Part shown: positions 694 to 35,640 of the stretch, piece after piece
How positions within the stretch are numbered: position 1 is the stretch's first letter
How the letters are laid out: every line of letters starts with the position of its first letter
Origin: Alphaproteobacteria bacterium UBA1218
GTDB lineage: Bacteria > Pseudomonadota > Alphaproteobacteria > Rs-D84
Assembly: GCA_002309215.1 (NCBI GenBank)
Contig: DBXG01000006.1
Coordinates: 1-44,549 of the forward strand
DNA length: 44,549 nucleotides
Direction of reading: 5' to 3'
Notes under the pieces: generated by a model
What the model saw: the letters and a program-made list of their open reading frames with translations, nothing else
Told to the model about the DNA's origin: nothing
Database searches by the model: none
Position numbers and translations under genes: made by a program

Positions 694-2937
694 ATGAAGA
701 AAATTACATCGCTTTTTTTCGTGGCTGTTTTGTATGCCGCCAATGCGTTGGCTGCGGCTGATACCACTATATCGCGTGTAATTCCTGGCAAATCAAACGG
801 TTTGATTGAAAATACAGATTCTGAACGTGGGGAAAGCGCTGTTGTAAATCGTGCTGCACGTCGTGTAAATATTGCAAATAATAGTGACACAAAATCTGTT
901 GCAACACGCGCAACAACCCGCACAAACAATACGGCAACCAGAAGTCAAAGCAAATCTGTTAATGTTGTTTCGCGTTCAGTAAACAATCAGAAATCACGTA
1001 CCACTTTGGATGAAGGGGTAAATACATTTGGTCGAAATGCGCGCGTAAACTCTGCCAGTATAAATAATGAGGGGTCGGTCAGACGTGCTGGCTTGACATT
1101 GCGTACAACTACGGCAGAGGTTGGCGGTCGTGCAAAAATCATTGGGACAGACAAGCAAACAGGATCGAATATTGATGAACAGGTTCGTAATGTTCATGGG
1201 CGTGCTTTGGCATTAAATGGTTTTGCAAAAACTAAACCACAACCTGTGGCGACTGCTGAATCTATTGCTAATGCAAAAGATGTTTTGGAAAAAACTGCAG
1301 ATTTAAACAATACATGTCAACAGCAATATAACGAATGTATGGATCAATTCTGTGCAGTTGTTGATGCTAATCAAAAACGTTGCAGTTGTTCTGCAAATTT
1401 GTCGCGTTATGTCAAGGCGCAAGAGGCCGTGGAACAGGCGAATACTGAATTAAACGATGTTGCACAACGCATACGTTATGTTGGGCTTTCTGCTGATGAA
1501 ATTCGTGCCATTATGTCCGAGACTGAAGCCGAAGAAGCGATGAAGAAAAACAAAGATACCAGTGAAAATCGTTCTTTGCTGGATGATATTGCAGATATGA
1601 TAAAAGACCCCAGTGCAAAGTCTTCTGCGTCAAATTATGATGTCAGTTCTATATTGGATATGGATTTTGACTTTACCGAAGATTCTGGTGATATATTTGG
1701 TCTGGGTATCAGTTTGGGAGGCTCGTCCAGTGACATCGCAAAAAAACGTGGCAGGGATTTGTATAATGAAGCAACAAAACGTTGTAAATCTGTGTTGACT
1801 AATTGCAAGGAGGCTGGTGGTACAGAATCACAAATAACTGGCAATTATGATTTGGCGATTGACAAAGATTGTGTTGCTTATCAGGCAGGTTTGGAAAAAT
1901 TAAATAAAACTTTGGTTTCTAATGTGCGTAGTGCAAATTTAATGTTGCAGAAAGCGCGCTTGGCAGTTTTGCAAAACAAGAATCAGTATGATATTCGTGG
2001 GTGTATTGGTGCGCTGGAAAAATGCATGCTGGATGATATGGTCTGTGGCGATGGCTATCTGAAATGTTTGGATCCAACCAAGAAATACATAGACGAAAAT
2101 GGCGAAGTTGTTTTAGGCCAACAAATAACAAAAATTACACAGTTTATGACATCATACGATAATTCTAAAATTGATCGTGATTTTGTCAGAAATTCACCGT
2201 CCAGTTGTGCTGGTAGCAGTGATGGTGGTTGCATTGTGAACTATTTATTATCTAAGATTGGAACAGGGCAGACGATCAAAGACGGTGGTTTGTGTCGTGC
2301 TGTGCTGGATAAATGTCAAGATTATACATATACAACAAATAATAATACATCGACATACAAACAATATAATGATGTTGTTGTGAACTATATCCAACGCGCA
2401 ATGGTAAATATCAAGGCTGCACAATCAAAAATAATATCTGATTATGCGTCAAGTTGTTTGTCTGATATGTCAGATTGTTATAATCTGCAGATAACGCAAA
2501 TCAATTCTTTGACGGATGTTGCAAACATAGAAACTGTGCGACAGGTTATGACTGGTGCGTGTCATAACGTTGCATTAACGTGTGGTTATGCGGTTTTAGC
2601 GAATGAACTAAGCGACTCGGATACAGACGAAGATGTTGTTACAAAAATATCAGAAGTGTTTTACCAATCATTATTATGCCCAGAAAACTCAACGTATGAT
2701 CCAAATGATTCGCACACCACAAGTATAAACAGAAAGACCAGTACCTCATCGGCTTATGCATGGGTTAATTCACGTTGCAAATGTGATATTGGTTATACTG
2801 TTTGGAATGGTAGTTGTTTGCAGCAGTGCGCAACCAACCAATATCGTAATGCTTCGGGGGTTTGTGTTTCTGGATGTGCATCAAGTAAGTTGAAAAGAGA
2901 AACGGGCGAGTCAGAATATAGCAGATGTGACGAATAA
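694..2937 (+). CDS. Secreted cysteine-rich protein of unknown function (747 aa)
   Basis: The signal peptide is MKKITSLFFVAVLYAANALAAA. About 190 aa of basic Ser/Thr/Asn/Arg-rich low-complexity sequence follows, then a region with 28 Cys (my count), including seven C-x6/7-C pairs and an EGF/furin-like Cys cluster at the C-terminus. A terminator follows. I recognised no family. Confidence 0.8.
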   Translation: MKKITSLFFVAVLYAANALAAADTTISRVIPGKSNGLIENTDSERGESAVVNRAARRVNIANNSDTKSVATRATTRTNNTATRSQSKSVNVVSRSVNNQKSRTTLDEGVNTFGRNARVNSASINNEGSVRRAGLTLRTTTAEVGGRAKIIGTDKQTGSNIDEQVRNVHGRALALNGFAKTKPQPVATAESIANAKDVLEKTADLNNTCQQQYNECMDQFCAVVDANQKRCSCSANLSRYVKAQEAVEQANTELNDVAQRIRYVGLSADEIRAIMSETEAEEAMKKNKDTSENRSLLDDIADMIKDPSAKSSASNYDVSSILDMDFDFTEDSGDIFGLGISLGGSSSDIAKKRGRDLYNEATKRCKSVLTNCKEAGGTESQITGNYDLAIDKDCVAYQAGLEKLNKTLVSNVRSANLMLQKARLAVLQNKNQYDIRGCIGALEKCMLDDMVCGDGYLKCLDPTKKYIDENGEVVLGQQITKITQFMTSYDNSKIDRDFVRNSPSSCAGSSDGGCIVNYLLSKIGTGQTIKDGGLCRAVLDKCQDYTYTTNNNTSTYKQYNDVVVNYIQRAMVNIKAAQSKIISDYASSCLSDMSDCYNLQITQINSLTDVANIETVRQVMTGACHNVALTCGYAVLANELSDSDTDEDVVTKISEVFYQSLLCPENSTYDPNDSHTTSINRKTSTSSAYAWVNSRCKCDIGYTVWNGSCLQQCATNQYRNASGVCVSGCASSKLKRETGESEYSRCDE

Positions 2938-5809: not shown

Positions 5810-7150
5810 TTACTTTTTTAGCCAAGTTTGTGCTAGTTTTGTTGCAAGATTTTTTGCGTTGCCCCATACGGTTTTTGCAGCATCTTGGAATTGTTTGGTA
5901 TACATGTTATCGACATTGCCACCAATTTTTTTCGCTAAACTATCAGTCTGATTTGCAAAATATAAAACCAAATAACCAGCCAAGATAGTCGTTATCACAG
6001 AACCAACTGAATATCCACCGTTGCTGTCCAAAGATATAATATTTGCCAATAATGCAGCGCATATTGCAATTACAATTGATAAACTGACAAAATACACCGC
6101 AGCATTTACGAACACAAATAATACGCTTGTTAGTTTTTGCGTGTTAAATACTTTTAATAGACCATTGAATACTTGACCTGCAATATTCTTTTCTGAATTT
6201 GATGGCATAGATTCTGCCAATGCGGTAAAAGGCAACATCATCAATGTTAAAAATAAACTTGTAGCGATACCCAATGCCATAAACGCATATTTGAATATAC
6301 ATTTTACAAATATAACAATTGATACAATACCAACAACTATCATTGTTATACTGTGTCCCAGCCCGTATTTTATCCATTGAAAACCCGTTGCTGTCGCGTG
6401 ATAAAAATATATAGATATACGCGATGGCAGACACATTATATTGGCAGCGGTATCTGCATCAACCAATAAATCTAATGATTTGTCTGCGTTTACATAATTG
6501 TGAATTGCGGCGCATGTATCAGGAATATTGACTTTGTAAGTTTCTGCAACGGCCCCCAATATAAAGTCAGACAAATATGTTCCCAGTGCTAAAATTGGAG
6601 ACACAATCATCGAGAAAATCTTTATTGGACCATAGTTTAATATAACAATCCATATAACGATGGTAATCCCTTGCTTGAATATGTTATACAAAGCGGTCTT
6701 GTAATCGCCTGAATCACGAATAAGTTTATATGCTTCCATTCCAACCCCAAAAATATACATAAACAATAAAAATATAACTGCAAATTGAACCAATGACATT
6801 TGTAAAACAGTATCAATCACCGATAAAGCCTTCATCAACATTAAACCCAGTTTCGCCTCAATTGGTACAAAAGTATCAGGATTCAAATCGATTTTGGGTT
6901 CGAATTTATCAAAATCTTTGGAAATGTTTTGATTAAATGTTGTTATATCATTTGTGTCTAACCAATTTTTTTGTTCTGTTGGTTGTTCTGAGTTTTGTTC
7001 TTGTTCAGATGTTATTTCCTGGTCAACAATTTGTTCTGGTATTGAATCTTGGTCAGCAGGTAAAAGTTCTTCGCCATAAACACCGCGTATGCAAAATACG
7101 CATAATATGCAAATTATAAATCTCGATAATAATTTCACAATTCGCATCAA
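5810..7150 (-). CDS. Multi-pass membrane protein, paralog 1 of 5 (TrbL/VirB6-like, tentative), with a signal peptide and an acidic Gln/Glu-rich N-terminal region
   Basis: It has a signal-like N-terminus, then EELLPADQDSIPEQIVDQEITSEQEQNSEQ, then many long hydrophobic helices. It shares the motif IVSPILALGTYL, a two-Cys loop and MLPFTAL with the neighbouring paralogs. It ends in WLKK. Confidence 0.75.
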   Translation of the reverse strand: MMRIVKLLSRFIICILCVFCIRGVYGEELLPADQDSIPEQIVDQEITSEQEQNSEQPTEQKNWLDTNDITTFNQNISKDFDKFEPKIDLNPDTFVPIEAKLGLMLMKALSVIDTVLQMSLVQFAVIFLLFMYIFGVGMEAYKLIRDSGDYKTALYNIFKQGITIVIWIVILNYGPIKIFSMIVSPILALGTYLSDFILGAVAETYKVNIPDTCAAIHNYVNADKSLDLLVDADTAANIMCLPSRISIYFYHATATGFQWIKYGLGHSITMIVVGIVSIVIFVKCIFKYAFMALGIATSLFLTLMMLPFTALAESMPSNSEKNIAGQVFNGLLKVFNTQKLTSVLFVFVNAAVYFVSLSIVIAICAALLANIISLDSNGGYSVGSVITTILAGYLVLYFANQTDSLAKKIGGNVDNMYTKQFQDAAKTVWGNAKNLATKLAQTWLKK

Positions 7151-7161
7151 GATGTTTCCTT

Positions 7162-8607
7162 TTACTTTTTCATATTACCTTTGATTGCATCAAATATTTT
7201 TGCTGGTGCTTTGTAAACCATCACACCAAAATTTTTTACCCAAGTACCATAATTAAAGTTTTCTTTTGCAGGGCTACCAATTATTTTGTTGATTTCTGGT
7301 GAAATAATCCATAAATACAGAAACGCAACCCCAATCATGAACATCAAGAAATAAAAACCATCGTCCATAAAATCAAAAGCATCAGGATATTTCTTTGTGA
7401 CGACAGTTTTTTGTGCATTAAAACAGGCTACAAACTTATCTTTATCCATTTTGCCATCAATCAAGGCAACCTTTTCACATTCTGAAAATACAGCCATCAC
7501 CGACATAGTTTGTGCATCAGAGTTTTTAGGTGCGATTTGTCCAAACATTGGGGGCATAATAGTTGTAAAACCGTCCGTTGGACCCGGATAAAAACTGTCT
7601 GCAGAAAAATACACAACTGCATAGATTAAAGATATCTTTACACTAATTTTTATTATGCTAACAGCAGAATCAACCAATATGTTTATGGCGGATTCTGGTA
7701 GGTTTTTAGCAATTTTCCAAACTTCTTCAAACGCATATGCTGCTATGAAAAACGGCATAAATACGATAATAAAGATTAATTTGAAAATGACATTTAATAC
7801 CTGAAATACCAAATCAAACCCAATTGCTAAAAATATTAAAACCAACGCAAGTCCAGCTAACCAAGTAAATAGTCCCCCACCAAGTCCAAGCCAAGAATAA
7901 TTCATCAAAGCAAATCCACCGCCTGCACCAGCCAGCATTACTGTATTCAGATTACCCATAACGCACATAAACGGTTTTAATATAGGTGTTAAAACATTTT
8001 GTGATGATTCTGAATCCAAAGAAATATCACATTGTGCGTCGCTGATAACGCCTGTCACAGCCAAAGACAATGTTGTTCCAACATACATAACTGGTGTCAC
8101 TGTGATATTTGTTATTGTTTTCAATGCGGTTGTTCCAGACCAATTTAATGCGCCAATCAAAGCACCAGCAATAATAACCCGCAATCCTGTTTTCCAAACT
8201 TTTGTGAACCATTTTTGGAAATCAAGTTTTGGTTCGTTGCCGGATAAATCTTTGATATCTTTAGAAGCTGCTTGTTCATGAATGTATGACACAGTATGCA
8301 AAATGATAAATATCCCAAAACCAACAGCCATCAGTATCCACAAGTGTTTAACTATACCAGTCCAGAACATTTCTGTGGCGCGACCAATAACATCAAATAA
8401 ATCTGCAATATATCCACACAAGAAACATCCGTTTGCAGATGCAATATCACCAGTCTGGACACCGATTTGTTGCATAAAATTACTGACGCTGGTATAGGAT
8501 AAAGATGCACCATTAATAGAAGAACTTAGATACCAAATACCAACCCCAAGTGCTGTAACAGCGCTTAAAACTTTTATCAACCAAGATATAAGCCAAGCAT
8601 ATGCCAT
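7162..8607 (-). CDS. Multi-pass membrane protein, paralog 2 of 5 (TrbL/VirB6-like, tentative)
   Basis: The N-terminal CFLCGYIADLF motif is followed by a TM helix. It has TVTPVMYVGTTL, a two-Cys loop (DAQCDIS...FMCVMG) and a MPFFIAAY helix, and it ends in NMKK. The start lies 5 nt after the upstream gene's stop. Confidence 0.75.
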   Translation of the reverse strand: MAYAWLISWLIKVLSAVTALGVGIWYLSSSINGASLSYTSVSNFMQQIGVQTGDIASANGCFLCGYIADLFDVIGRATEMFWTGIVKHLWILMAVGFGIFIILHTVSYIHEQAASKDIKDLSGNEPKLDFQKWFTKVWKTGLRVIIAGALIGALNWSGTTALKTITNITVTPVMYVGTTLSLAVTGVISDAQCDISLDSESSQNVLTPILKPFMCVMGNLNTVMLAGAGGGFALMNYSWLGLGGGLFTWLAGLALVLIFLAIGFDLVFQVLNVIFKLIFIIVFMPFFIAAYAFEEVWKIAKNLPESAINILVDSAVSIIKISVKISLIYAVVYFSADSFYPGPTDGFTTIMPPMFGQIAPKNSDAQTMSVMAVFSECEKVALIDGKMDKDKFVACFNAQKTVVTKKYPDAFDFMDDGFYFLMFMIGVAFLYLWIISPEINKIIGSPAKENFNYGTWVKNFGVMVYKAPAKIFDAIKGNMKK

Positions 8608-8612
8608 ATTTA

Positions 8613-9818
8613 TTATTTGTTATCCTTTGCGTCCGATTTGATTGCGTTTTTAGCAACCTCTGTTGCTTTACTTGCAGCAATACCAATTAGTTTCCTTGTT
8701 TGGTTTGCAATATTGTTGGTCAATGCTAATACACTCTTACCCATTTCTGTTGAAATTTTATTTTCCTGTGATAATCCAAATGTAGACATGATTTCATTCG
8801 TTATATCTGGTATTTTCCCCTTGAAATAGTTTAGGATAAAAATTAAAACAATGGAACCCAAAAATGTCAACTGAACAACATTAGGATTATCAAAGTTGAA
8901 GTCTAATATAGATTGAGTTGTGTTTTCAATGGATTCGGCATTTAATTCATAACCGTTAAGATAACCACGAACCAGTTGTAATATAACGGTGTATGTGAAA
9001 ATTGTAGCCACAACAGATACAATTGCGTTAATCAATTTTTTTATTTGCCCGCCACCAAGGTCTTTGCCAAGATTTTTTAGCCAACCTGGCAAACTGGCAG
9101 CGCCACGAAATATAAATAATACCAATGATAAAGGAAAAAAGAACGCAAACATTGCCATAGCAAATATTATATCCATAAAACATAACGAATATTGTATGAA
9201 GAATTGTGCAAACTTATACGTAATGAATAACCCAATGAATAATATCAACAAACGTTTTATAATAAGCCATACTTCGATTTTTGATGGGAATGAAAATGAT
9301 GCATCAATAATTGATATGCCAAGTTTTATGAATACTTGGAAACTAGCAACACTTGTTTGTAAGATTTTAACAATTGTGTCACGCAAGTGTGGGTTAAAGA
9401 ATCCATTATCATTTAACTTTATTGCAGAATAATCGTCTGGAACTTTGTAATCATCGGGCAACATTATTTCAGAAAAGCCCAGTGTTATTTCTGCGACAGG
9501 TTCAAATGTTATAGTTGAAATAAACCTTGGGACATTTAATCCCAAAGCGAGCAAAGATAATACCATCACAGATTTTATTAAAACTGGTTTTAATGATTTT
9601 TGATAAGTTGGATCATTTATGCCTGATTTTATATTTTGCCAAACTACGTTCAAAACATAAAAAGCAAATAAAATACTAAAAATAACAACGCTGAAAAAAC
9701 TTAACCTGTCATACAAAGCGCCAGCGGTTTCAGAGATTATAGCAAACAAATTGTCGAATACTGGACATGTCCAACATTGCGCAACATTATCTATCAAAAT
9801 GTTTGCTATGTTTTGCAT
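8613..9818 (-). CDS. Multi-pass membrane protein, paralog 3 of 5 (TrbL/VirB6-like, tentative)
   Basis: It has CWTCPVFDNLF followed by a TM helix, then TFEPVAEITLGF and a FFPLSLVL helix, and it ends in KDNK. I place the start at ATG 9818 (MQNIANIL), 1 nt after the upstream stop (TAA-A-ATG), rather than at the overlapping 9839 start in the ORF track. Confidence 0.75.
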   Translation of the reverse strand: MQNIANILIDNVAQCWTCPVFDNLFAIISETAGALYDRLSFFSVVIFSILFAFYVLNVVWQNIKSGINDPTYQKSLKPVLIKSVMVLSLLALGLNVPRFISTITFEPVAEITLGFSEIMLPDDYKVPDDYSAIKLNDNGFFNPHLRDTIVKILQTSVASFQVFIKLGISIIDASFSFPSKIEVWLIIKRLLILFIGLFITYKFAQFFIQYSLCFMDIIFAMAMFAFFFPLSLVLFIFRGAASLPGWLKNLGKDLGGGQIKKLINAIVSVVATIFTYTVILQLVRGYLNGYELNAESIENTTQSILDFNFDNPNVVQLTFLGSIVLIFILNYFKGKIPDITNEIMSTFGLSQENKISTEMGKSVLALTNNIANQTRKLIGIAASKATEVAKNAIKSDAKDNK

Positions 9819-9819
9819 T

Positions 9820-11091
9820 TTATTTCTTCTTGCCCCCATTCCAGATGTTTTGTATTACACTTGGCGTTGCTTTCAATTTTTCCCATGTCCTTTTTCCCGT
9901 TGCGATGGCATCGTTATACGTGTTATGAGACAACCCAGAATATCTTTCGAGTCTTTCGCGTGTCATATTGAAAATGGCGCGCATCAAGAAGAATGTTAAA
10001 ATAGCAGAAATCCACAATATTGAATGTTGCCCAAAACCGCTGGATGTATCTGTAATGCCCGAAGCCATAGCAAATATTGGGGAAGACCAATTAAACAAAG
10101 CGTGAACTATCGCTATGTTTATGCACAATATAAATGCACACGCAATCATTGTAATAACCAATTTTTTTAGTGCGTTTATTATTTGATCAAATACTGGTAA
10201 TACATCAACCCATTTATCAGATTTTTTTGCAACCCATGCCAAAACTTTGAAGGGATACATAATCAGGGCTAAACAAAAATCAAATATACCCTGAATTATC
10301 AACAACGCCATAAATAAATTTGATGCCACAAATGACGCAATCAAAATAATACCTGTTATGATATTTAGTAAATCTCGTCCCCCACGCGGGATTATGGTCA
10401 GCATACCGGTAAAACCTTGTTTTAATAAGTCAAAGCCGTATTCAATAACACGATTGTTTTCTTTGGAAATTGTATAAACAGGTTGAATTAAAAAGTCACA
10501 ACTGCTTTCGGAAATCCAGCCTTTGTCTGCGATAGATACAGGACATTTTGGTACATTGTTCGTATTTGTTGATGAATATGGATTTACTGTCGTTAAAATG
10601 CTGTTAGTGTAAATTGCACCGAATTCCAAAAACGGGTTAACCAATAACTCTGTGACATATACTGGTTTTATTTGTAAAAGTACGGCACCCGCAATAATTG
10701 CACGCAAACAAGGTTTCAGAACATTTTCTGTCACTGTCCAAGCGTTTACATTATCCCATACACTATCACCTGGGGTAAAGCCAAGGAAAGACAACCAATC
10801 TTTTGGGATAAACATTTTGAAAGCATACAACGCCAAATAAAATCCCAAGAATGCATAAATCAAAATATAAATCAGGCCTGTCCCATTACCAACAAAATAT
10901 TTATATAACGATGTCGCGATGTTCATCATTGTTTCAAGAACCAGTGGCACAAAAGGTGCCAGATTGAAAGCATCAACCACACTGGATTCCGCATGTGCAG
11001 ATTCTGGCATCAAAAAACAAAATAAAATCAGCCCGAACAACATCGGGATACAACTAAACAACCGACACAAAGTAGGCTTTAATGTGCGCAT
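9820..11091 (-). CDS. Multi-pass membrane protein, paralog 4 of 5 (TrbL/VirB6-like, tentative); first gene of the minus-strand operon
   Basis: The signal peptide ends in ESAHA-ES. It has LVNPFLEFGAIY, a two-Cys loop (PKCPVSIADKGWISESSCDF) and a MYPFKVL helix, and it ends in GGKKK. A GAGAGA-type SD precedes the ATG. Confidence 0.75.
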   Translation of the reverse strand: MRTLKPTLCRLFSCIPMLFGLILFCFLMPESAHAESSVVDAFNLAPFVPLVLETMMNIATSLYKYFVGNGTGLIYILIYAFLGFYLALYAFKMFIPKDWLSFLGFTPGDSVWDNVNAWTVTENVLKPCLRAIIAGAVLLQIKPVYVTELLVNPFLEFGAIYTNSILTTVNPYSSTNTNNVPKCPVSIADKGWISESSCDFLIQPVYTISKENNRVIEYGFDLLKQGFTGMLTIIPRGGRDLLNIITGIILIASFVASNLFMALLIIQGIFDFCLALIMYPFKVLAWVAKKSDKWVDVLPVFDQIINALKKLVITMIACAFILCINIAIVHALFNWSSPIFAMASGITDTSSGFGQHSILWISAILTFFLMRAIFNMTRERLERYSGLSHNTYNDAIATGKRTWEKLKATPSVIQNIWNGGKKK

Positions 11092-11119
11092 TCTCTCTTT
11101 ATTATTTTTTACATATTGA

Positions 11120-11128
11120 ATTATATCA
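11120..11128 (-). promoter_or_regulatory. Extended -10 promoter (TGATATAAT on the minus strand) for the 11091-5810 operon
   Basis: The plus-strand attatatca at 11120-11128 reads TGaTATAAT on the minus strand. This predicts a leader of about 22 nt containing the SD before the ATG at 11091. Confidence 0.4.
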
Positions 11129-11144
11129 CATTTATTACAAAATA

Positions 11145-11153
11145 TGGTATAAT
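11145..11153 (+). promoter_or_regulatory. Extended -10 promoter TGGTATAAT for the divergent paralog 5 gene; predicts a leaderless or 1-nt-leader mRNA
   Basis: TGgTATAAT lies at 11145-11153 and the ATG at 11161. Only 7 nt separate the hexamer from the start codon, and there is no SD. Confidence 0.4.
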
Positions 11154-11160
11154 TAAAATT

Positions 11161-13128
11161 ATGAAGTGGATAAAAAAATTTTTAATGGGTTTTGTTATGG
11201 CTATGCCTTTGTCCGTTGGTGCAGTCACACCATTTGTCATAGGTGGTGCAGCAGTTGGTGTTGGCATAATTGGAATGTCCATTTGGCGTACTGTTGCGCC
11301 AGTAAATATAACTCAGGCTTTGGACTTTTTTTCATCTTGTTGGACGTGCCAAATATTTTCAGACATTATGGTTTCAATGTCTAATCTGTTGCCTGGGGTT
11401 TACAGCGCGTTGGGACGAATCGTTATACCAATTTCAGCAACATTATTAGCAGTTTTAGTAGCATGGCGTTTAATGTCTGGTTTTTTCAACGCAAAGGCAG
11501 AAAGTGGCACCAAATTGCTGGGAAACTTCGGAACGTATGCTATAAAATTGTCTTTGCTAACAGGTTTATTATTGGTGCCTTTGCCACGATTTATAACCAG
11601 CGGTTTAATAGAACCTGCTATGACAATTGGTACATCTTTGGATTATATTGTATCTGATAACAACAAATTTTCTGAATGTATGGTTGCGACTGCGCTGGCG
11701 GACCCCGTAACTATATCAGAAGACGCGTCGTCTTATGGTGCTTTTTCGCCAAAACTACGTCATCAACTGGCGTGTGAAGTCGCAAATGTCCATCAGATAA
11801 CAGGTCTGGGAATGACGGTTGGTTGGACAATGTTGAATATGTCGTTTAATGCAGAATATATGCACAAGATTTTTCTGGGTATCCCTGTGTTTCCAAATAT
11901 TCCAATATTTGCAATTGGTTTGCTGATATTGGTATTATATTTCTTTGCTTTATTGCCTATACCTTTATATTTTCTAGAAGTGTTTATAAAATTATCTTTG
12001 GATTTAGTAATGTTGCCATTGATGTTAATGGCATGGATGTTTGATGAAGACGGTTTTGCGATTTTCCCACAGGGAGGAAAAACGATTCGACAAATGATAG
12101 ACGATGTTATCAAGGCCGTACTAGGAATCGCTTTGACCGTTGTATTTTTAACTTTTTCAGTTATGTTTTTGAATGCGTTGTTTGAAAATGCAGATGGGGT
12201 CAGCGCTTTGCAACAGGCAATAGCGCAAAACGATTCGAAAATCTTTATGGACGGGTTGACTTTGCGCAATGACAGTATTGTTTTGGTGGTTTTAATTGGC
12301 TTGTTTTTAGCGATGTTTATGACTTCGATTCCGCAGTTGATTAATATGTTGTTCAAGATAAAAATATCTGATGAATATTATCAAAAAGTCAAAAAAGATT
12401 TGAGCATATTGTGGCAAGGAATCAAAAATATTATACCGGGGGATAAAAAGGCAAAATCTTCTGATGTTGGTGGCGGTTCCTCTGGGTCGGATGTTTTGTC
12501 AAATATGCTCAATCCTGGCGGTTCTGATAAGCAAAAACGGTATGTAGAACTTGAATATATTGAATCTTCAGGCACCCAATACATTGATACAGATTTTGCA
12601 CCAGACGACGACACAAGAATTAATATCAAAGTGCAACCAAAATCTGGTAAAAATACGTTTCTGTTTGGTGGGCGAGATAACAATCAATATAATTCATTCG
12701 CCTTGGAGGTTTTTCATGATGGAAATCCAGAAAAGGTCTATATTGAATATGGAACAGAGGCCCAAGTTATAGATTGTAGGCGTCCATTGAATGTTGATTC
12801 AATACGAATTATTATTTTTATAGATGGTGGCAGTGGTAGCAAGGATGGTTTTGTGGATGACAAGACTGTATCGTTCGTAAAACAATCGTTTAGTGCATCG
12901 AACAATATATTTTTGTTCGGATTAAATGATCGCGGGATTTTTACAGCAGGGACAACTTGCAGGTTATATCAGTGTGACATTTTCCAAAATGGTCGTTGTG
13001 TTCGTGGGTTTATTCCTGTAATAGACGTAAAAAATAATGTGCCATGCTTGTATGACATGATAAACGGGGAGTTTTATTATAACAAAGGCCAGGGAAAGTT
13101 TATCCCAGGACCGTTAAAGAAAAAATAA
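11161..13128 (+). CDS. Multi-pass membrane protein, paralog 5 of 5 (TrbL/VirB6-like, tentative), fused through a Gly/Ser linker to a C-terminal lectin / phage receptor-binding-like beta-sandwich domain
   Basis: It starts MKWIKKFLMGFVMAMPLSVGA. It has CWTCQIFSDIM followed by a TM helix, LIEPAMTIGTSL, a two-Cys loop and MLPLMLMAW. The linker is KKAKSSDVGGGSSGSDVLSNMLNPGGSD. The C-terminal domain runs YVELEYIESSGTQYIDTDF ... RLYQCDIFQNGRCVRGFIPV ... PCLYDMINGEFYYNKGQGKFIPGPLKKK. The TTG at 11116 in the ORF track lies upstream of the predicted promoter. Confidence 0.75.
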   Translation: MKWIKKFLMGFVMAMPLSVGAVTPFVIGGAAVGVGIIGMSIWRTVAPVNITQALDFFSSCWTCQIFSDIMVSMSNLLPGVYSALGRIVIPISATLLAVLVAWRLMSGFFNAKAESGTKLLGNFGTYAIKLSLLTGLLLVPLPRFITSGLIEPAMTIGTSLDYIVSDNNKFSECMVATALADPVTISEDASSYGAFSPKLRHQLACEVANVHQITGLGMTVGWTMLNMSFNAEYMHKIFLGIPVFPNIPIFAIGLLILVLYFFALLPIPLYFLEVFIKLSLDLVMLPLMLMAWMFDEDGFAIFPQGGKTIRQMIDDVIKAVLGIALTVVFLTFSVMFLNALFENADGVSALQQAIAQNDSKIFMDGLTLRNDSIVLVVLIGLFLAMFMTSIPQLINMLFKIKISDEYYQKVKKDLSILWQGIKNIIPGDKKAKSSDVGGGSSGSDVLSNMLNPGGSDKQKRYVELEYIESSGTQYIDTDFAPDDDTRINIKVQPKSGKNTFLFGGRDNNQYNSFALEVFHDGNPEKVYIEYGTEAQVIDCRRPLNVDSIRIIIFIDGGSGSKDGFVDDKTVSFVKQSFSASNNIFLFGLNDRGIFTAGTTCRLYQCDIFQNGRCVRGFIPVIDVKNNVPCLYDMINGEFYYNKGQGKFIPGPLKKK

Positions 13129-13264: not shown

Positions 13265-13777
13265 GTGATGAGAAAGTTTCCGTTTCTTTATTGGCCAAAC
13301 AAGACTGCTGGTGACGCAGATTACCAGTTGTCTCGTAAAGTTATAAACTCCGTAACAGGTGTTATGCCAGATGTAATATTGGACGATTTAGACATAGCCG
13401 GCATTTTTGATAAAAACGAAGATGCCGTTATATATTATCCTGTATTTTGTGAATCTACTGGTTGGTGGGGCGAACTATTGGGCGGTAATGGTGTTATCGT
13501 TGATAAGATAATTGTATCCCCAGAATGCCAATTGATGGTCATTGTTGCAGAATCCAAGGCGAATTTACATGGCAAAAATCAATTGTTGGCGGCAGAGATT
13601 CGTCCGTCTAGCGGTTTTTTCAAGAAAATGAATTCGTCTATTGCGACTGTGGCAGATATGTTGGCAACTGATGCGGGGACTATTTTGGCGCTGTTTTCTG
13701 GCAAGAATTCGAATCAGTTTGTAAATATAATAGAAGCAACAGGTAATTCTTATTTGGGTTGCATTGGTCAATATTGA
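13265..13777 (+). CDS. Hypothetical soluble protein (about 170 aa)
   Basis: It is the only long ORF here, and it has no signal peptide or TM segment. I recognised no family. The start may be GTG 13265 or ATG 13268. Confidence 0.55.
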   Translation: MMRKFPFLYWPNKTAGDADYQLSRKVINSVTGVMPDVILDDLDIAGIFDKNEDAVIYYPVFCESTGWWGELLGGNGVIVDKIIVSPECQLMVIVAESKANLHGKNQLLAAEIRPSSGFFKKMNSSIATVADMLATDAGTILALFSGKNSNQFVNIIEATGNSYLGCIGQY

Positions 13778-13826: not shown

Positions 13827-13870
13827 CTTCGAGCTATTCAGATAGTTTTATAAAATAAAAGGACATAAAG

Positions 13871-14083
13871 ATGAAAAAAGGCATTCATCCAGAATATCAT
13901 GAAATCAACGTCACAACAACTGACGGAAAGACTGTAAAAATGTATTCTTCTGTAAATAAAGACTTGGTTTTGTCTATGGATAATTTGAATCATCCTGCAT
14001 GGACTGGTCAACGTAACAACGACGGTGCCAAAGGTAAACGTGCAGCAGAATTCAAGAACAAATTTGCAGGATTTAATTTCTAA
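13871..14083 (+). CDS. rpmE: 50S ribosomal protein L31 (Cys-less, zinc-independent form)
   Basis: MKKGIHPEYHEI...NHPAWTGQ is the L31 signature. Both CxxC pairs of the zinc form are absent (TTTDG and MDNLNHP in their place), as is usual for alphaproteobacterial L31. Confidence 0.93.
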   Translation: MKKGIHPEYHEINVTTTDGKTVKMYSSVNKDLVLSMDNLNHPAWTGQRNNDGAKGKRAAEFKNKFAGFNF

Positions 14084-20408: not shown

Positions 20409-20498
20409 TTTTGTGCATTTTATTTTAATAAATGTGTATTTTTCGCTTGCTTGCGATTCGTAAATTGTTCTATGATTGGTTTAAGGAAGGAAAGGAAT

Positions 20499-21764
20499 AT
20501 GCAGCGTTTTTCTGTATCATTGTTGTCGTGTTTAATATGTGCCAAGGCCTTGGCTGGCGCGTATTTGCCGGTTGTTGATGTGTCCAATGGGACGGTGTCC
20601 GCGCGTGCCGCTTTTGGTGAAGAAATCGCAGTTGAAAATCGTGTTTCTGTTGAACCTGTTGCAAAAAAAGTTGTTGCGCGAACTGCACGTAAACCTGCGA
20701 CAAAAACAAACTCTGTTATTGCATCAAATACGAATGATGTTCTGAAACCAATGCGTCCCAGTTCTGATTTGTGGGCGCATAACGAATCTCCTTTGCGCAT
20801 GCCACGTATGGATGAGATTGCAGTCGTTCGAACAGATGTTTTGTTGCCCGAAGAATCTTTGGATGTGACGCCCGCGCGTGTCGCTGCCCGTTCTGTAAAA
20901 AACACACAAAGCGAAACAAAAGTTTCTAATCGTGAAATGATGGCAGAAATAAATTCTTTGCGTTCTGAAATTGCCAGATTGAATGAAGCGCAAAAACAAA
21001 CCAGTGCAAAGATTGCTGCATCACGTGATGTTGTACCAGGAGCGGATATTTTGGATAAATTCGAATCAAAACCTGAAACAACAATTGCGCAAAATACTAA
21101 TGGTATAAATATTCGACGTGAAGTTGTCCCAATGCAATCAAATCAAAACATTGTGGCACGCGCTATTGATGAAAAGCCGGCAGAGCCAATAATTGCGCGC
21201 GTAAATGATATGGCGAAAATGTCGCCAAGCGAATTGAAAAAGGCTTTCAAGAAAACATATTTATCTGAAAACAAACATCTTTCTACGTATCAGGTTGATA
21301 ATCGTTATGATGTGGTCAGCGATATGACTACTTCGATTGAAGGATTTAATGCACAACGTGATTTGTCTGAAGCAAGTAGTGGTGTTCGTCCATTGGAAAT
21401 TAAAATATCTTTTATGAACAATGATGCAGGTTTGTCGCGCGAAAATTATAACTTGTTAAGTGAATATGCAAAAATTGTTGTGAACAATCCAAAACGCGCA
21501 ATTCAGGTTGCTATTCCAGAATCTGCAACGCGTGATAAAGATGGACGTAAATTGGCTGCGCGCAGATTAGCAATTGTAGAACAGGTTTTACGTGATACTG
21601 GTGTTGCAGAACAACGTGTTGTCCCTGTGTTGTCCCAACGCAGTGATGATTCTTTTGTATTGCGTATAATATCTGGTGATTTGTACGAAAGTTTGACAGA
21701 GCAGAAGCGCAATATGTTCGGTGATAGCGTGTCAAAGAAAACGTACAAAAGTATGTCGTGGTAA
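20499..21764 (+). CDS. Secreted protein with a coiled-coil segment and a degenerate OmpA/MotB-like C-terminal domain (tentative)
   Basis: The ATG at 20499 follows the SD AAGGAAGGAAAGGA. The signal peptide is MQRFSVSLLSCLICAKALA. The C-terminus ...RKLAARRLAIVEQVLRDTGVAEQRVVPV... resembles the OmpA_C peptidoglycan-binding fold. The product assignment is weak. Confidence 0.6.
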   Translation: MQRFSVSLLSCLICAKALAGAYLPVVDVSNGTVSARAAFGEEIAVENRVSVEPVAKKVVARTARKPATKTNSVIASNTNDVLKPMRPSSDLWAHNESPLRMPRMDEIAVVRTDVLLPEESLDVTPARVAARSVKNTQSETKVSNREMMAEINSLRSEIARLNEAQKQTSAKIAASRDVVPGADILDKFESKPETTIAQNTNGINIRREVVPMQSNQNIVARAIDEKPAEPIIARVNDMAKMSPSELKKAFKKTYLSENKHLSTYQVDNRYDVVSDMTTSIEGFNAQRDLSEASSGVRPLEIKISFMNNDAGLSRENYNLLSEYAKIVVNNPKRAIQVAIPESATRDKDGRKLAARRLAIVEQVLRDTGVAEQRVVPVLSQRSDDSFVLRIISGDLYESLTEQKRNMFGDSVSKKTYKSMSW

Positions 21765-26239: not shown

Positions 26240-27220
26240 ATGTTAAACAAATTGATTAAAAATTGTATTGCATTTTCGATGCTGGCAATATTGTTTAACC
26301 CAAATATTTCACGTGCGTACGAATATGAAGATGAAGGTTTGATGCGCAAGGCAGAAGAAATGTATCAGGCTGTGCGTATAACATGCTCTGGCATATCTGA
26401 TGAAATCAGTAAGGTTTCCAATATATCAAAGGCTAATACTGCGGTGACAGCTGTCGGAACTGCTGCATCCACAGGTGCATTAGTGGCAGGTATCAAAAAA
26501 TCTCAGGAAGAAGAAGAAATAGAAAAACTGATTGACCAGATTTGCAAGGCTGGTGGTTGCACTGCCAAGGAAGTTCAGGAAATGCCCGATGAACAGTTTT
26601 TTGGGATTTTACAACAAATGGCAGAGTTGTACCAATTACAAAAGAGAATTGAAAAATCCAAGACATTGGGTAATTGGCGTACTGGGTTGATGGCAGGAAC
26701 AATTGGAACTAATCTGGCATCTGCGATAATGTCTGGTATAAATATCAATCAGTCTGAATTGATACAACATATAACTGCATGTAATGAGGCTGTATCTGGT
26801 CTGGAAGACATAGAAACAGAATTGAAAAAGGCAGGTATAAGTCCGATACAGGAACCGATTGCAAAAAATATAAATAATGCCCGCACATGGTGTAACAAAA
26901 TAAACACCAAGGATGTAGAGAAAATAGAAAATCGTATGAAAGGCGTATTGGGGACATCTGTTGTTGGTGGTGTGATTGGTATAGTAGGAACAGGAACCAG
27001 TGCAGCCGCAAACAGTGATAAATATATGGCTGTTGAAAAAAAGGTCAGGTTGACAGAAGACCAAAAGAAAACAGAACATGCGTTGAATACAACTGCAAAT
27101 GTGATGGCAGGCGCAAACATAGCGACAGGTGTTGTAGAGACGGGATTAAACATATCACTGATATCATTAACCAAGAAATTGATGCAGCAAGCAGAGCGGT
27201 GTGAGGGTGCATTAAAATAA
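26240..27220 (+). CDS. Secreted protein with four Gly/Ala/Thr-rich hydrophobic (glycine-zipper-like) segments; unknown function
   Basis: A signal peptide ends in ...NISRA-YEYED. The four segments are AVTAVGTAASTGALVAGI, TGLMAGTIGTNLASAIMSGI, GVLGTSVVGGVIGIVGTGTSAAA and TTANVMAGANIATGVVETGL, separated by charged helices. The stop overlaps the next start (TAATG). Confidence 0.7.
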   Translation: MLNKLIKNCIAFSMLAILFNPNISRAYEYEDEGLMRKAEEMYQAVRITCSGISDEISKVSNISKANTAVTAVGTAASTGALVAGIKKSQEEEEIEKLIDQICKAGGCTAKEVQEMPDEQFFGILQQMAELYQLQKRIEKSKTLGNWRTGLMAGTIGTNLASAIMSGININQSELIQHITACNEAVSGLEDIETELKKAGISPIQEPIAKNINNARTWCNKINTKDVEKIENRMKGVLGTSVVGGVIGIVGTGTSAAANSDKYMAVEKKVRLTEDQKKTEHALNTTANVMAGANIATGVVETGLNISLISLTKKLMQQAERCEGALK

Positions 27221-28284
27221 TGAAAAGATTAGTCGCATTTTTTTGTTTGTTATTTTTACCAACTGTCACACTGGCAGCGCCAATGTCACATGACAGTTGT
27301 GTTGAAAATGGTAAATATAAATCTGAATATAAAATCGATAGACGTTGTTATGTGACAGATGAACAAAAACAGCAAACGCCATATAATGCTGTGGTAAAAT
27401 TGACTGATAAAAGTTGTACGGGTACCATAGTAAAAAAAGATGATGGATACTTTGTGTATACAGCGAGACATTGCGTTTATGATGGTTTGGATAAGCTGTT
27501 GAATATAGAAATAGAATTGCAAGACGAAAGGGCTTTTAGTGCCAGTTTTGTAAAAGAAGGGAAAAGTTTAAGTGATTTTGACGATTGGGCGCATTATAAA
27601 ATACCTGTTGATAAAGATGATACCAGTATCCCATATGTTCAAACTGATTCATTTGAAGATGGTAAGGTACAAATTGTCGGGTATGGTGCCTTGAAGATTC
27701 TGAGTGATAAAGAAATAAAAAAAGTTAAAGATACATATGTTGAGGTGTTGACCGAATTTGGAAGTGCAAATGATAAAGAAAATATAAAACAAGCCAAACA
27801 AAATGGCTTTATGAGGGACAAAATGTTTGTGGCTAACTGGTTCGGTGATTATGTCGGTAATAGAGAGTTAAAAATTTCTGACTGTGAATTATCAAACAAG
27901 ATTTTAAAAGGGTGTCAGGTGTGGGGTGGCAATTCCGGGGGGCCATTATTTAATAATCAAGGTGGAATTATGGGGATTATAGCAACCGGAAATTATCAGA
28001 TTGGTGGATCAGAACACGCTAATGTCGGTTTGGTAGTGGGGGTATATTCAGATGACAAGACGAGTGGCAAACGGTGGAATTGGGTTGCTTCATCTGGGGA
28101 AGCACAAAACTATTATACCAGTATTCAACAACAAAATGAGCAACAAGAAAGAGAGACGCATAATACAAAAGTATCAAACGCTCAAATGTTAAAACAGATA
28201 CAACAAGAAAACAGAATGCAACAGCAAGAAATTCGTCTACAGAACCAGCGAATGATGATGAACATGAACAAACAATATTGGTAA
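27220..28284 (+). CDS. Secreted trypsin-fold (S1 family) serine protease with a Gln/Asn/Met-rich C-terminal tail
   Basis: A signal peptide is present. The triad motifs are TARHC (His), DDWAHYKI (Asp) and GGNSGGPLF (Ser, GNSG as in S1B enzymes). The N-terminal Cys module is HDSCVENGKYKSEYKIDRRCYVTDEQKQQ. Confidence 0.8.
   Translation: MKRLVAFFCLLFLPTVTLAAPMSHDSCVENGKYKSEYKIDRRCYVTDEQKQQTPYNAVVKLTDKSCTGTIVKKDDGYFVYTARHCVYDGLDKLLNIEIELQDERAFSASFVKEGKSLSDFDDWAHYKIPVDKDDTSIPYVQTDSFEDGKVQIVGYGALKILSDKEIKKVKDTYVEVLTEFGSANDKENIKQAKQNGFMRDKMFVANWFGDYVGNRELKISDCELSNKILKGCQVWGGNSGGPLFNNQGGIMGIIATGNYQIGGSEHANVGLVVGVYSDDKTSGKRWNWVASSGEAQNYYTSIQQQNEQQERETHNTKVSNAQMLKQIQQENRMQQQEIRLQNQRMMMNMNKQYW
27289..27396 (+). 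repeat. Copy A of a 108-nt near-identical segment shared by the two protease genes
   Basis: It aligns without gaps to 28363-28470, with about 10 mismatches by eye (about 90% identity). That is far higher than the similarity across the rest of the two genes. Confidence 0.85.
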
Positions 28285-28293
28285 ATAAAACAA

Positions 28294-29424
28294 GTGAAAC
28301 AAGGATTGTTGTTTTTATGGTTAGCATTGAGTCCTGTGGTGGCATTTGCCGGTGTACAACCACATGACGGTTGTATGGAAAACGGTAAATATAAATCTGA
28401 ATATAAAGTCGACAGACGTTGCTATGTGACAGATGAACAAAAACAGCAAGCACCATATAATGCTGTGGTTGCGTTATTGGATGATCAAAATAATATTTAT
28501 TGCACAGGGACAATATTTCGTGATAATCAAGATTTTTTATTAGAAGATGCATTTAAGTATGAAACAAAATTGCCTGTTCCTGGTTTGTTTGTGTATACTG
28601 CTGCGCATTGTATTAATGGAGATAGGGTAAAAATAAGATTGCAAAATGGTAAAGAGATAATTACAGAACGTGTTAATGGAAAACATAGTTTCTGGGATAA
28701 ATCAACCACAGATTGGGCTGTTTATAAAATACCAGAAAATGAACAAAACGGTTTGCCGTATATTGACATTGCTTATGGTGAAGATGTTTCAGCAGAACTA
28801 AAAGTTGTTGGATATGGTTCGTTAGCAATTATGACTGACAAGGAAATAAAAGATTATAAACAAGCATATATTGACTTTCTGAAGTCTGATTTAGCAAAAA
28901 AAACAGATACAGATACTTTAATAGAGGCTAACTGTAAAAACAGGACAGACGGTTTAAGTTATGATTTTTGTAAATATATATATGAAACCAAACAAGATTA
29001 TAATCAAAACTATTTTGGCAGGCAGTTAGAGTATTTAGATAATATTGATGCGCCAGGAGTGCCGAGTGATTATTTTGTAGATGGTGCTATATCTACTCAC
29101 GACTCGATGTTTAGGGAGTTTAATAAAACAACTCCATTGCCAAGAGATGGTGATTTATTGAAAGAATCAGTATGTCATATGAATTCGACAGATGACTTTT
29201 GTCAGGCTTGGCATGGAAATTCTGGGGGTGGAATATTTGTAAGGGATAAAATTATAGCTGTGGTGTCAAACGGGCCAGGAACAATAGGCGGAAAACATCA
29301 TGCTGCATTTTTACAAGATATTACACGAAAATCTGAATTTGGGTCCAGGTTAGAAAAAGGTGTGGAACAGGCGGTCTTTTTGCAAAATTCACAGCAAGAT
29401 AATCTTGATAGATTGCGTAAATAG
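28294..29424 (+). CDS. Secreted trypsin-fold (S1 family) serine protease, paralog 2
   Basis: It has a GTG start and the signal peptide MKQGLLFLWLALSPVVAFA. The triad motifs are TAAHC, TDWAVYKI and HGNSGGGIF. It carries the same N-terminal Cys module (HDGCMENGKYKSEYKVDRRCYVTDEQKQQ). Confidence 0.8.
   Translation: MKQGLLFLWLALSPVVAFAGVQPHDGCMENGKYKSEYKVDRRCYVTDEQKQQAPYNAVVALLDDQNNIYCTGTIFRDNQDFLLEDAFKYETKLPVPGLFVYTAAHCINGDRVKIRLQNGKEIITERVNGKHSFWDKSTTDWAVYKIPENEQNGLPYIDIAYGEDVSAELKVVGYGSLAIMTDKEIKDYKQAYIDFLKSDLAKKTDTDTLIEANCKNRTDGLSYDFCKYIYETKQDYNQNYFGRQLEYLDNIDAPGVPSDYFVDGAISTHDSMFREFNKTTPLPRDGDLLKESVCHMNSTDDFCQAWHGNSGGGIFVRDKIIAVVSNGPGTIGGKHHAAFLQDITRKSEFGSRLEKGVEQAVFLQNSQQDNLDRLRK
28363..28470 (+). 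repeat. Copy B of the 108-nt near-identical segment
   Basis: See 27289-27396. Confidence 0.85.
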
Positions 29425-33297: not shown

Positions 33298-33867
33298 TTA
33301 GCGATTTTTTGTAAACAATTTTTCCAACCATTCAAAAAAACGATCGATCCCAGACGTTGCATCTATAATTTCGGGTACAAAATGTTCCTCTTTCCTATAT
33401 TGAAATGTTATAGTGTTCGATACAAAGGTAAGTTCGTCATATATATCGGCAGTATTAACCAAAGCAAAATCCGAATGTTGTTCATATTCGTATCCACCTT
33501 GTTCCCTTATTTTGGCTATTATTTCGCTGTTGATGGCGGCTTGTGCTGGTGTGACATTCGCACAATCTATTACAGTTTGCACAAGATTCCCTCGGTCATC
33601 AAAACAATCTGTTTTTGTACTTTCGTTAACTTGTAAATCTATGTCTTCGCCCCAATTGTCGCTGTAATCACTATAACTATCGTCCCATCTATCTTTATGT
33701 TTTTGTGCGGAAAATTTCTGTGTTATTTCCTGATTGATAATATTTTGGGCAAATGTAGAATTTGCTTGTTTTTTTGCTGCTTTTTGTTCCTTGGCATTTT
33801 TACACCAATTTGCCCAAGCAACCTTTATTTCTTCGGCAGTTTGAACAGTTTTTTGTATTTGAGACAT
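33298..33867 (-). CDS. Hypothetical acidic protein (189 aa)
   Basis: This is a clean ORF. I place the start at MSQIQKTV (ATG 33867). It has an acidic Asp/Ser/Tyr/Trp stretch (RWDDSYSDYSDNWGEDIDL) and no TM segment or signal peptide. I recognised no family. Confidence 0.55.
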   Translation of the reverse strand: MSQIQKTVQTAEEIKVAWANWCKNAKEQKAAKKQANSTFAQNIINQEITQKFSAQKHKDRWDDSYSDYSDNWGEDIDLQVNESTKTDCFDDRGNLVQTVIDCANVTPAQAAINSEIIAKIREQGGYEYEQHSDFALVNTADIYDELTFVSNTITFQYRKEEHFVPEIIDATSGIDRFFEWLEKLFTKNR

Positions 33868-33972
33868 TTTGTGTCCTTTGTTTTTTGTGTTGTTTATTAT
33901 GGTTACAATATGACACAATATTAAAAAATGTCAAGAATAATATTTGGGTTCAAATAATGCATCTGTTTGAAA

Positions 33973-34004
33973 CAAAAAAGATAAAATTCGGAATAAATCC
34001 GAAT
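33973..34004 (-). terminator. Terminator downstream of tRNA-Glu
   Basis: The stem is attcgga (33986-33992) / tccgaat (33998-34004). On the minus strand it is followed by TTTTATCTTTTTT. Confidence 0.65.
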
Positions 34005-34014
34005 TTAATTTTTA

Positions 34015-34089
34015 TGGCACTCCCAATGGGAATCGAACCCATGTTGCCAGAATGAGAATCTGATGTCCTAACCGCTAGACGATGGGAGC
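34015..34089 (-). tRNA. tRNA-Glu (anticodon CUC), CCA encoded
   Basis: The reverse complement is GCTCCCATCGTCTAGCGGTTAGGACATCAGATTCTCATTCTGGCAACATGGGTTCGATTCCCATTGGGAGTGCCA. It folds with a 7-bp acceptor stem, the GTCTAG..GG..AGGAC D-arm typical of tRNA-Glu, an anticodon stem TCAGA/TCTGG with loop TT-CTC-AT, and a T-arm ATGGG-TTCGATT-CCCAT. Confidence 0.9.
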
Positions 34090-34128
34090 GTATGCCAGTA
34101 TTTTATATATAAAGTTTGTGTTTTTCAA

Positions 34129-34884: not shown

Positions 34885-34912
34885 AGCCAGACCTTTGGGC
34901 TGTATATAGTTC

Positions 34913-34940
34913 AGAATAGAATAAAAAATTGCCTTGTCAA
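34913..34940 (-). promoter_or_regulatory. Sigma70-type promoter for the 34884 gene
   Basis: On the minus strand: TTGACA (plus 34935-34940), a 16-nt spacer, then TATTCT (plus 34913-34918). An AAAGG SD precedes the ATG. Confidence 0.4.
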
Positions 34941-34954
34941 GTTGGTGGTAGTGG

Positions 34955-34984
34955 AAAAATAACAGGCGGTATTTATATACCGCC
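34955..34984 (-). terminator. Terminator of the lipoprotein gene
   Basis: An 8-bp stem ggcggtat (34965-34972) / ataccgcc (34977-34984) is followed on the minus strand by TGTTATTTTT. Confidence 0.7.
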
Positions 34985-35005
34985 GTGTTTATATGTGCGC
35001 AAATC

Positions 35006-35539: not shown

Positions 35540-35577
35540 AGTTCAACCTTTTATTAAAAACGCTTTTGACAAAACAT

Positions 35578-35605: not shown

Positions 35606-35640
35606 GTTTTTTTCATGATTTCGTCATAAAATGGCGGGTT

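Follow-up and report, generated by a model that had tools for sequence, protein, structure and literature searches.

An array of five divergent VirB6-like membrane proteins in Candidatus Enterousia, a probable cysteine-rich VirB6 subfamily encoded among housekeeping genes

Introduction

Five open reading frames (ORFs), which we call A to E, fill positions 5810-13128 of contig DBXG01000006.1 (GCA_002309215.1), with A to D on the minus strand and E on the plus strand. The question raised by this locus is to which family the five products belong and which machinery, if any, they serve. The window that we analyzed is the whole stretch of 44,549 nt, and coordinates are window positions unless a locus handle precedes them. 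The host is Candidatus Enterousia, order Rs-D84, a gut inhabitant that synthesizes peptidoglycan and is not known to live inside other cells. Published Enterousia genomes are 0.75-1.0 Mb in size, lack the tricarboxylic acid cycle, respiration and flagella as well as standard sugar, amino-acid and peptide transporters, and dependence on a partner has been suggested for them (PMC12306168). Our literature searches returned nothing on type IV secretion systems (T4SS) in Rs-D84 or Enterousia and nothing relevant on orphan VirB6-like systems.

The initial annotation of this DNA had likened the five proteins to VirB6/TrbL, the inner-membrane subunits of T4SS. It had left two alternatives: either an orphan, expanded VirB6 module serving machinery encoded elsewhere, or a distinct membrane-protein system. 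Profile comparisons and predicted models together give good support to the first part of this proposal, and we consider it very probable that A-E are homologous to VirB6/TrbL. The second part is answered with less confidence, and largely from related lineages.

Results

The five proteins are members of one family

Pairwise searches link A to D (1.7e-9) and C to E (1.6e-10), and B is linked weakly. For the family as a whole, orthologues of A-E were taken from 85 related loci, and the orthogroup profiles were compared by hhalign. The probabilities obtained are 98% for C-E, 96% for A-D, 95% for A-B, 94% for A-C, 86% for both A-E and D-E, 83% for B-C and 80% for B-E, over alignments spanning 250-340 colinear columns; the C-E comparison in detail reaches 98.3% (E 2e-14, 341 columns). 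The B-D and C-D comparisons are not significant, and these pairs are joined indirectly. Because membrane proteins can inflate profile scores, we also ran the A-E profiles against MraY and FtsW profiles of the same genomes, and these controls reached at most 0.8% over 12-63 columns. Since the similarities are high and the controls are clean, A-E form one family and are true paralogues. Identity among the array copies is ~16-24%, in line with the earlier view that they share an architecture rather than high identity, including ~6-7 hydrophobic helices that dominate each of the five. The merged A-E alignment contains an invariant proline in an xPxxxxG motif, two invariant glycines and an invariant proline in an M-x-P-F/L helix; the two prolines correspond to the proline-centred motif and the proline-containing helix that had been read in all five proteins.

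The family is connected to VirB6/TrbL through metagenomic intermediates

A search with the merged family profile yields 1,088 representatives at E<=1e-3. Among the distant family members, which are metagenomic, 17 of 67 match PF04610 (TrbL/VirB6), and no other family is recurrent. P0462, P0477 and P0471 score 35.7, 35.3 and 34.5 bits, respectively, against a PF04610 gathering score of 25.9. The TrbL match of P0462 (260-370) lies inside the region covered by the Enterousia profile (87-402, E 1.7e-23), and the hidden Markov model (HMM) of the B orthogroup alone finds this protein at 6e-29. Four intermediates keep the same register, in which position ~243-252 of the Enterousia profile corresponds to position ~133-139 of the VirB6 HMM. 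One distant member, P0483, carries the source label 'type IV secretory pathway VirB6-like protein'; the other source names are uninformative.

The same connection is obtained with a reference profile of plasmid VirB6/TrbL, for which we used 14 genes, from R46 and 13 further plasmids, each of which lies between virB5/eex and virB8. By hhalign, the Enterousia profile matches the profile of the bridging arrays at 99.9% (E 3e-34, 359 columns), and the bridging-array profile matches plasmid VirB6 at 97.5% (E 5.5e-12, 271/340 columns); the merged Enterousia profile reaches plasmid VirB6 directly at 50.8%, with controls at or below 0.3%. Via the bridging profile, the invariant proline of the M-x-P-F/L helix aligns with the 'GPiFI...LF..TR' segment of plasmid VirB6. 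Of the five proteins, only D and E keep the tryptophan that is essential in VirB6.

Fold searches point the same way. For the AlphaFold model of E (pLDDT 68.7 overall, 60-85 across the membrane domain), the only membrane-domain matches that Foldseek returned from the PDB are TrwI/VirB6 of the R388 T4SS (8rt9_F, 7o3v_J, 8rtd_L), with probabilities of 0.9-1.0 and target-normalized TM-scores (TMt) of 0.47-0.50. For D (pLDDT 73, pTM 0.63) the top nine PDB matches are all TrwI/VirB6 (probability 0.99-1.0, TMt 0.41-0.50), and those that follow have probabilities of at most 0.69. No transporter fold occurs among the confident matches of either model. Taken on its own, this predicted similarity offers modest support and is not decisive. 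A Pumilio match obtained when the family profile was compared with PDB sequences was rejected as spurious.

Several results count against the VirB6 assignment. None of the five proteins matches any model in Pfam or NCBIfam (hmmscan, E<=1), TrbL/VirB6 included, or in PHROGs (E<=0.1), and in this respect the direct profile searches did not bear out the initial annotation. The direct profile link to plasmid VirB6 is weak for A (26.7%, E 7e-4, 234 colinear columns) and C (11%, 263 colinear columns), and the D and E orthogroup profiles have no direct match to it. The Foldseek E-values are 7e-3 to 0.1, with TM-scores of at most 0.50 and an rmsd of ~10 A, for models of moderate confidence. These absent curated matches and weak structural scores are what one would cite for an unrelated family of polytopic membrane proteins, such as a new kind of transporter, that looks like VirB6 by virtue of its hydrophobic helical composition. 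We regard this explanation as very improbable, since the MraY and FtsW controls stay at or below 1% over short alignments whereas the chain to VirB6 holds at 97.5-99.9% over 271-359 columns. In addition, the Pfam TrbL threshold is passed by intermediates within the region in common, their alignments keep one register, both paralogues that were modelled, each on its own, retrieve VirB6 as their sole membrane fold, and no transporter family is matched by A-E in Pfam, NCBIfam or PHROGs, nor confidently by fold.

A cysteine signature sets the family apart from plasmid VirB6

The N-terminal CxxC motif that had been noticed in three of the proteins is present in B, C and E, and it is invariant among E orthologues. 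Likewise, the loop with two cysteines occurs in four of the five, A, B, D and E, with C as the exception. The N-terminal C-W-x-C signature is shared by B, C and E with 16/21 members of distant arrays and 49/67 remote members, and it is absent from all 14 plasmid VirB6 proteins, one of which has C-x-x-C at residue 240. Family members contain 8-15 cysteines per protein, versus 0-6 in the 14 canonical VirB6 proteins, and one of the remote members is fused to an M23 peptidase domain. Judged by sequence, the array very probably belongs to a very divergent, cysteine-rich "CWxC" subfamily of VirB6 that has no curated model; its hallmarks are the N-terminal C-W-x-C together with the paired loop cysteines, and its range includes Candidatus Enterousia (Rs-D84) together with other uncultured, mostly gut-associated lineages.

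The array is a conserved part of the Enterousia chromosome

Homologues of B, D and E number 606, 816 and more than 800 cluster representatives, respectively; none of them has an annotation, and their sources are gut or rumen metagenome-assembled genomes that bear the name Candidatus Enterousia or Alphaproteobacteria bacterium. Among species-representative genomes a scan detected 91 relatives, and orthologues of A are present in 76 loci. The initial annotation had left open whether the array is conserved in related genomes: the order A-B-C-D-E, with E divergent, is kept intact in 72/72 loci long enough to hold it, among ~91 Enterousia-like species whose orthologues are 45-95% identical. The flanks are syntenic as well. 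On one side the genes for L21, L27, a 758-aa uncharacterized protein, RNase T and UvrD precede the array, and on the other side it is followed by genes for a 169-aa uncharacterized protein, L31, IMPase, PBP1, MraY, FtsW and MurG. Because gene order and flanks are syntenic, we place the locus in the core chromosome rather than on a mobile island; the array flanks contain no integrase, relaxase or repeats.

Since the window has VirB6-like genes but no other part of a T4SS locus, one might also think of a relic: an integrated conjugative element, or a former T4SS locus, in decay and with no current function. This is extremely unlikely given five intact ORFs in the same order in every complete locus, many invariant residues, and core flanks with no sign of mobility. 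Moreover, the published Enterousia genomes show no accumulation of pseudogenes (PMC12306168).

Distant lineages carry similar arrays and a virB8-B11 islet

The bridging proteins are also encoded in tandem arrays among housekeeping genes, in distant lineages with GC contents of 29-58%. Loci L100 and L102 have five members each. In L104 (GC 0.30) an 86-aa gene is followed by members of 770, 781, 857, 474 and 650 aa, in L107 a 91-aa gene by members of 640, 648, 405, 457 and 763 aa, and in L108 (GC 0.29) an 88-aa gene by members of 551, 675, 663, 510 and 833 aa; the arrays of L105 and L106 (GC 0.58) are interrupted by contig ends. The longer members of distant arrays have 640-962 aa. Among L104, L107 and L108, orthology holds position by position for the first four genes (p1-p4), and p4, p3 and p2 correspond to B, C and E, respectively. 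Since positions are orthologous between the distant arrays and Enterousia, the five-fold paralogy is older than these lineages.

The small gene right before the array (L104:4967-5227, L107:7780-8055, L108:6061-6327) encodes a protein of 86-91 aa with two transmembrane (TM) segments and has no counterpart at the Enterousia array. Its product is of the size of VirB3, and searches gave non-significant hints only (VirB3 E 0.03, IcmT/TraK E 0.035). Behind the arrays of three distant lineages we also observed a conserved accessory module of an HTH_3 protein and three or four uncharacterized proteins (L100:17681-21775, L105:6275-11079, L109:12561-18434).

In L109 the array is followed by this HTH gene and four conserved accessory genes, and then, ~6 kb away, by a VirB11-like ATPase, which matches TIGR02788 over its full length (3e-41), and a giant protein. 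A metagenome scan with the L109 ATPase recovered close relatives in a four-gene islet flanked by genes for EF-G and S1. The islet encodes VirB8 (PF04335, 65 bits), VirB9/CagX (47 bits, with a SPOR domain), a VirB10/TrbI protein (113 bits) of 2,150-2,350 aa with many beta-flower repeats (L110:2934-9986, L113:2937-9989, L114:2521-8988), and the VirB11-like ATPase as its fourth gene. With this virB8-B9-B10-B11 islet among housekeeping genes, the wider clade has a chromosomal T4SS that is scattered in the manner of Rickettsiales.

Does the Enterousia array serve a secretion system encoded elsewhere?

The presence of this islet in related lineages, though not in Enterousia itself, leads us to favor the first of the two alternatives, namely that the array is an orphan VirB6 module for machinery encoded elsewhere in the Enterousia genome. 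By analogy with those lineages we hold this to be somewhat the likelier case. A number of observations pull in the other direction. Our data for Enterousia comprise the 44.5-kb window, ~5% of one genome, and the same region in relatives. No VirB2, B3, B4, B5, B8-B11 or D4 was found in the window, T4SS genes are absent within +-10 kb of the array in ~85 related Enterousia loci, and the accessory genes of distant arrays have no homologue in the window. The initial annotation had pointed out that no secretion machinery adjoins the array and that its neighbors are uvrD and rpmE, and this holds throughout. Physical linkage between an array and a T4SS core is seen in one lineage only, L109, and there is no array near the islet in L110-L117. 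All Rickettsiales virB6 paralogues are syntenic with virB3-virB4 (PMC7648143), which is not true of the Enterousia array, and the published genome analysis of Enterousia mentions no T4SS (PMC12306168).

Much of the same evidence suits another explanation, in which the proteins form an exapted VirB6-like complex that works independently of a T4SS, its ATPases and outer-membrane core having been lost or never present. Such a stand-alone complex might act as a channel, as a platform for lipid or protein insertion, or as an adhesion or contact site, with the cysteine-rich loops and lectin-like domains as an interaction surface. It would fit an array that sits among housekeeping genes in every lineage, with no VirB4, VirB11 or VirD4 within +-10 kb of any array except L109, and that is detached from virB3-virB4, unlike in Rickettsiales. 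It would also fit an extremely reduced genome without standard transporters, and the CWxC motif, the high cysteine content and the fusions to LamG or M23 domains, all absent from canonical VirB6. However, related lineages with the same type of array carry virB8-B9-B10-B11, once at a distance of 6 kb, a VirB3-sized two-TM gene precedes the array in three lineages, and the T4SS negatives for Enterousia cover only the small fraction of the genome given above. We therefore view a stand-alone complex as rather unlikely, while taking it to be the most serious competitor of a T4SS-linked array.

Organization of the array

The ORF sizes, gene spacing and divergent arrangement described in the initial annotation are borne out by the sequence: proteins of 446, 481, ~401, 423 and ~655 aa are encoded within 7.3 kb, the gaps in the minus-strand operon are 11 nt (A-B), 5 nt (B-C) and 1 nt (TAA-A-ATG at the D-C junction), and a 69-nt spacer separates D from E. 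D (9820-11091, minus strand, 423 aa) opens the operon and carries a signal peptide; its two-cysteine loop is PKCPVSIADKGWISESSCDF. C (8613-9818, minus strand) encodes 401 aa from the ATG at 9816-9818, with a CWTC motif and without the two-cysteine loop; its longest ORF (8613-9839, minus strand) has 408 aa, and the orthologues, with 395-400 aa, agree with the 401-aa start. B (7162-8607, minus strand, 481 aa) has an N-terminal CFLC motif, the two-cysteine loop and an additional cysteine-containing segment ahead of the final helix. A (5810-7150, minus strand, 446 aa, or 445 aa from the adjacent ATG) is the last gene of the D-C-B-A operon, 1 nt from the end of uvrD; it has a signal-peptide-like N-terminus and the two-cysteine loop (C213, C240), and lacks the CxxC motif.

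The longest ORF of E is 11116-13128 on the plus strand, and since the E orthologues have 655 aa, the most likely start is the ATG at 11161. Its VirB6-like membrane domain (11161-12465, residues 1 to ~435 of 655) includes the CWTC motif and the cysteine pair C173/C205 (655-aa numbering). A Gly/Ser-rich linker connects it to a laminin-G/LNS-like beta-sandwich with five cysteines (12538-13128, residues ~460-655). This C-terminal domain is predicted with a pLDDT of ~90, and its Foldseek matches are agrin G3, neurexin LNS and laminin LG (probability 0.9-1.0, TMt 0.44-0.52). The predicted fold of these ~200 residues is thus like that of the agrin and neurexin domains, but identity to them is only 10-14%, there is no Pfam match, and here the domain forms part of a VirB6-like membrane protein. 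Most E homologues have 430 aa and consist of the membrane domain only. Because just 5/82 E orthologues of the fetched loci possess the LamG-like domain, it appears to be a recent gain in a few strains.

The D-E spacer (11092-11160) contains back-to-back promoter-like sites. The best sigma-70-like match of the region is 11125-11153 on the plus strand (10/12, with an extended -10) and the second is 11129-11101 on the minus strand; both are consensus matches only, and the total of such matches in the region is not above shuffled expectation. The -10 boxes of these consensus matches end ~7-10 nt from the start codons of D and E, which suggests that the two transcripts would have very short leaders or be leaderless.

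Neighboring genes

Downstream of E lies a gene for a 170-aa protein (13265-13777, plus strand), followed by rpmE at ~13868-14080; the 170-aa protein is syntenic in relatives (169 aa) and has no family match. On the other side, two genes from the array, a 747-aa protein (694-2937, plus strand) has a signal peptide, ~40 cysteines and no match in any library. It is kept in all Enterousia loci (758-761 aa) and absent from the neighborhoods of distant arrays. We considered it as a cryptic VirB4 or TraN and rejected both, since it combines a signal peptide and many cysteines with no Walker A motif, no family assignment and no presence near distant arrays.

Behind murG, a 437-aa protein (20451-21764, plus strand) is homologous (3e-24) to an OmpA-like 493-aa protein encoded directly behind the L104 array. 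At 26240-29424 on the plus strand, a gene for a 326-aa uncharacterized protein precedes two tandem paralogues of trypsin-like serine proteases (354 and 376 aa). Four consecutive unannotated ORFs at 33298-36372 on the minus strand encode 206, 251 (two TM segments), 177 (cysteine-rich, lipoprotein-like) and 243 aa; they have a low GC content (0.33-0.35) and adjoin a glycosyltransferase cluster at 36469-39323. These four and the other uncharacterized ORFs of the window were examined as hidden VirB8, VirB9 or VirB5, without a hint at E<=10, and phmmer searches of the window ORFs with the VirB proteins of R46 found nothing.

Discussion

The closest parallel to the Enterousia array is the Rickettsiales vir homolog (rvh) T4SS, and the initial annotation was apt in drawing it. 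Rickettsia has 'an extraordinary five copies' of virB6, ~80% divergent and with domains that average 413 aa, and its T4SS is scattered over five islets (PMC2653234). As with RvhB6a-e, or VirB6-1 to -4 of Anaplasmataceae, four or five divergent VirB6 genes, here five, stand in tandem on the chromosome of a reduced-genome alphaproteobacterium. The domain size is alike (401-481 aa for A-D), some copies carry C-terminal extensions, as E does, and the separate islets of other T4SS genes have their counterpart in the virB8-B9-B10-B11 islet of related lineages. The differences are also considerable. The Enterousia array is flanked by uvrD and rpmE, without sodB or the join to virB3-virB4, and one of its genes (E) is divergent. 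Long extensions such as those of the 674-1154-aa Rickettsia proteins are missing from A-D, only E being extended (655 aa), and the Enterousia proteins do not reach PF04610 directly. The host belongs to another order, Rs-D84, and its life as a peptidoglycan-making gut bacterium differs from that of the rvh hosts. The Enterousia proteins carry CWxC and the cysteine pair in the loop, which may be further differences.

With canonical VirB6/TrbL proteins (TrwI of R388, TraD of pKM101/R46, VirB6 of A. tumefaciens) the family shares the hydrophobic multi-helix architecture, the proline-containing helix followed by F..T(R/K), and the profile homology through intermediates; the predicted models of D and E add a modest Foldseek match. 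In contrast, canonical VirB6 is a single-copy protein of ~300-350 aa encoded inside a T4SS operon, between virB5/eex and virB8; the 14 proteins that we checked are poor in cysteine and have no N-terminal CxxC. Canonical VirB6 also forms a homopentamer, and a VirB6 pentamer is the stalk base of the R388 T4SS (PMC9259494).

From these comparisons the following mechanism can be proposed. The genes D-C-B-A would be co-transcribed, and E would be transcribed divergently from the shared 69-nt control region. The five products would assemble in the inner membrane as a VirB6-type platform, and the simplest assembly would comprise one copy of each, in a pseudo-five-fold heteropentamer. That all five form a single heteropentamer is attractive in view of the number of paralogues, the R388 pentamer and the ancient positional orthology; on the other side of the balance, the argument for it turns solely on the number five. 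The platform would serve a scattered, Rickettsiales-like chromosomal T4SS whose VirB3/B4 and VirB8-B11 components are encoded elsewhere in the genome. The cysteine-rich loops may face the periplasm or the cell surface, as may the LamG domain in those strains whose E carries it. For a cell that has a genome below 1 Mb and lacks the standard transporters for nutrients, contact-dependent exchange with a partner cell could run through this machine; its substrate, the heteropentamer and the topology of the loops and of the LamG domain are, like the remaining T4SS parts in Enterousia, inferred.

Taken as a whole, we judge it reasonably probable that a scattered T4SS like that of Rickettsiales has a CWxC subfamily of VirB6 as its pentameric base, perhaps assembled as a heteropentamer. 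A more speculative variant, which we think unlikely, dispenses with the canonical T4SS (no VirB4/VirD4): here five position-specific VirB6 paralogues would build a disulfide-stabilized heteropentameric platform that acts as a contact-dependent conduit or attachment organelle, by which Enterousia and related gut bacteria with reduced genomes would acquire the metabolites of a partner.

The present analysis assigns a probable family to a conserved "hypothetical" block that makes up ~0.8% of a genome smaller than 1 Mb and, across the superfamily, to over 1,000 protein clusters for which curated models give no match. It extends to uncultured gut lineages the peculiarity of five tandem VirB6 genes, which until now has marked out the Rickettsiales. 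Tying the number five to the VirB6 pentamer of R388 offers a heteropentameric stalk base as a testable explanation of the rvh oddity. If a T4SS is present in Enterousia, it would be a candidate for how partner-dependent bacteria interact with other cells; if there is none, the array would represent the first stand-alone use of VirB6.

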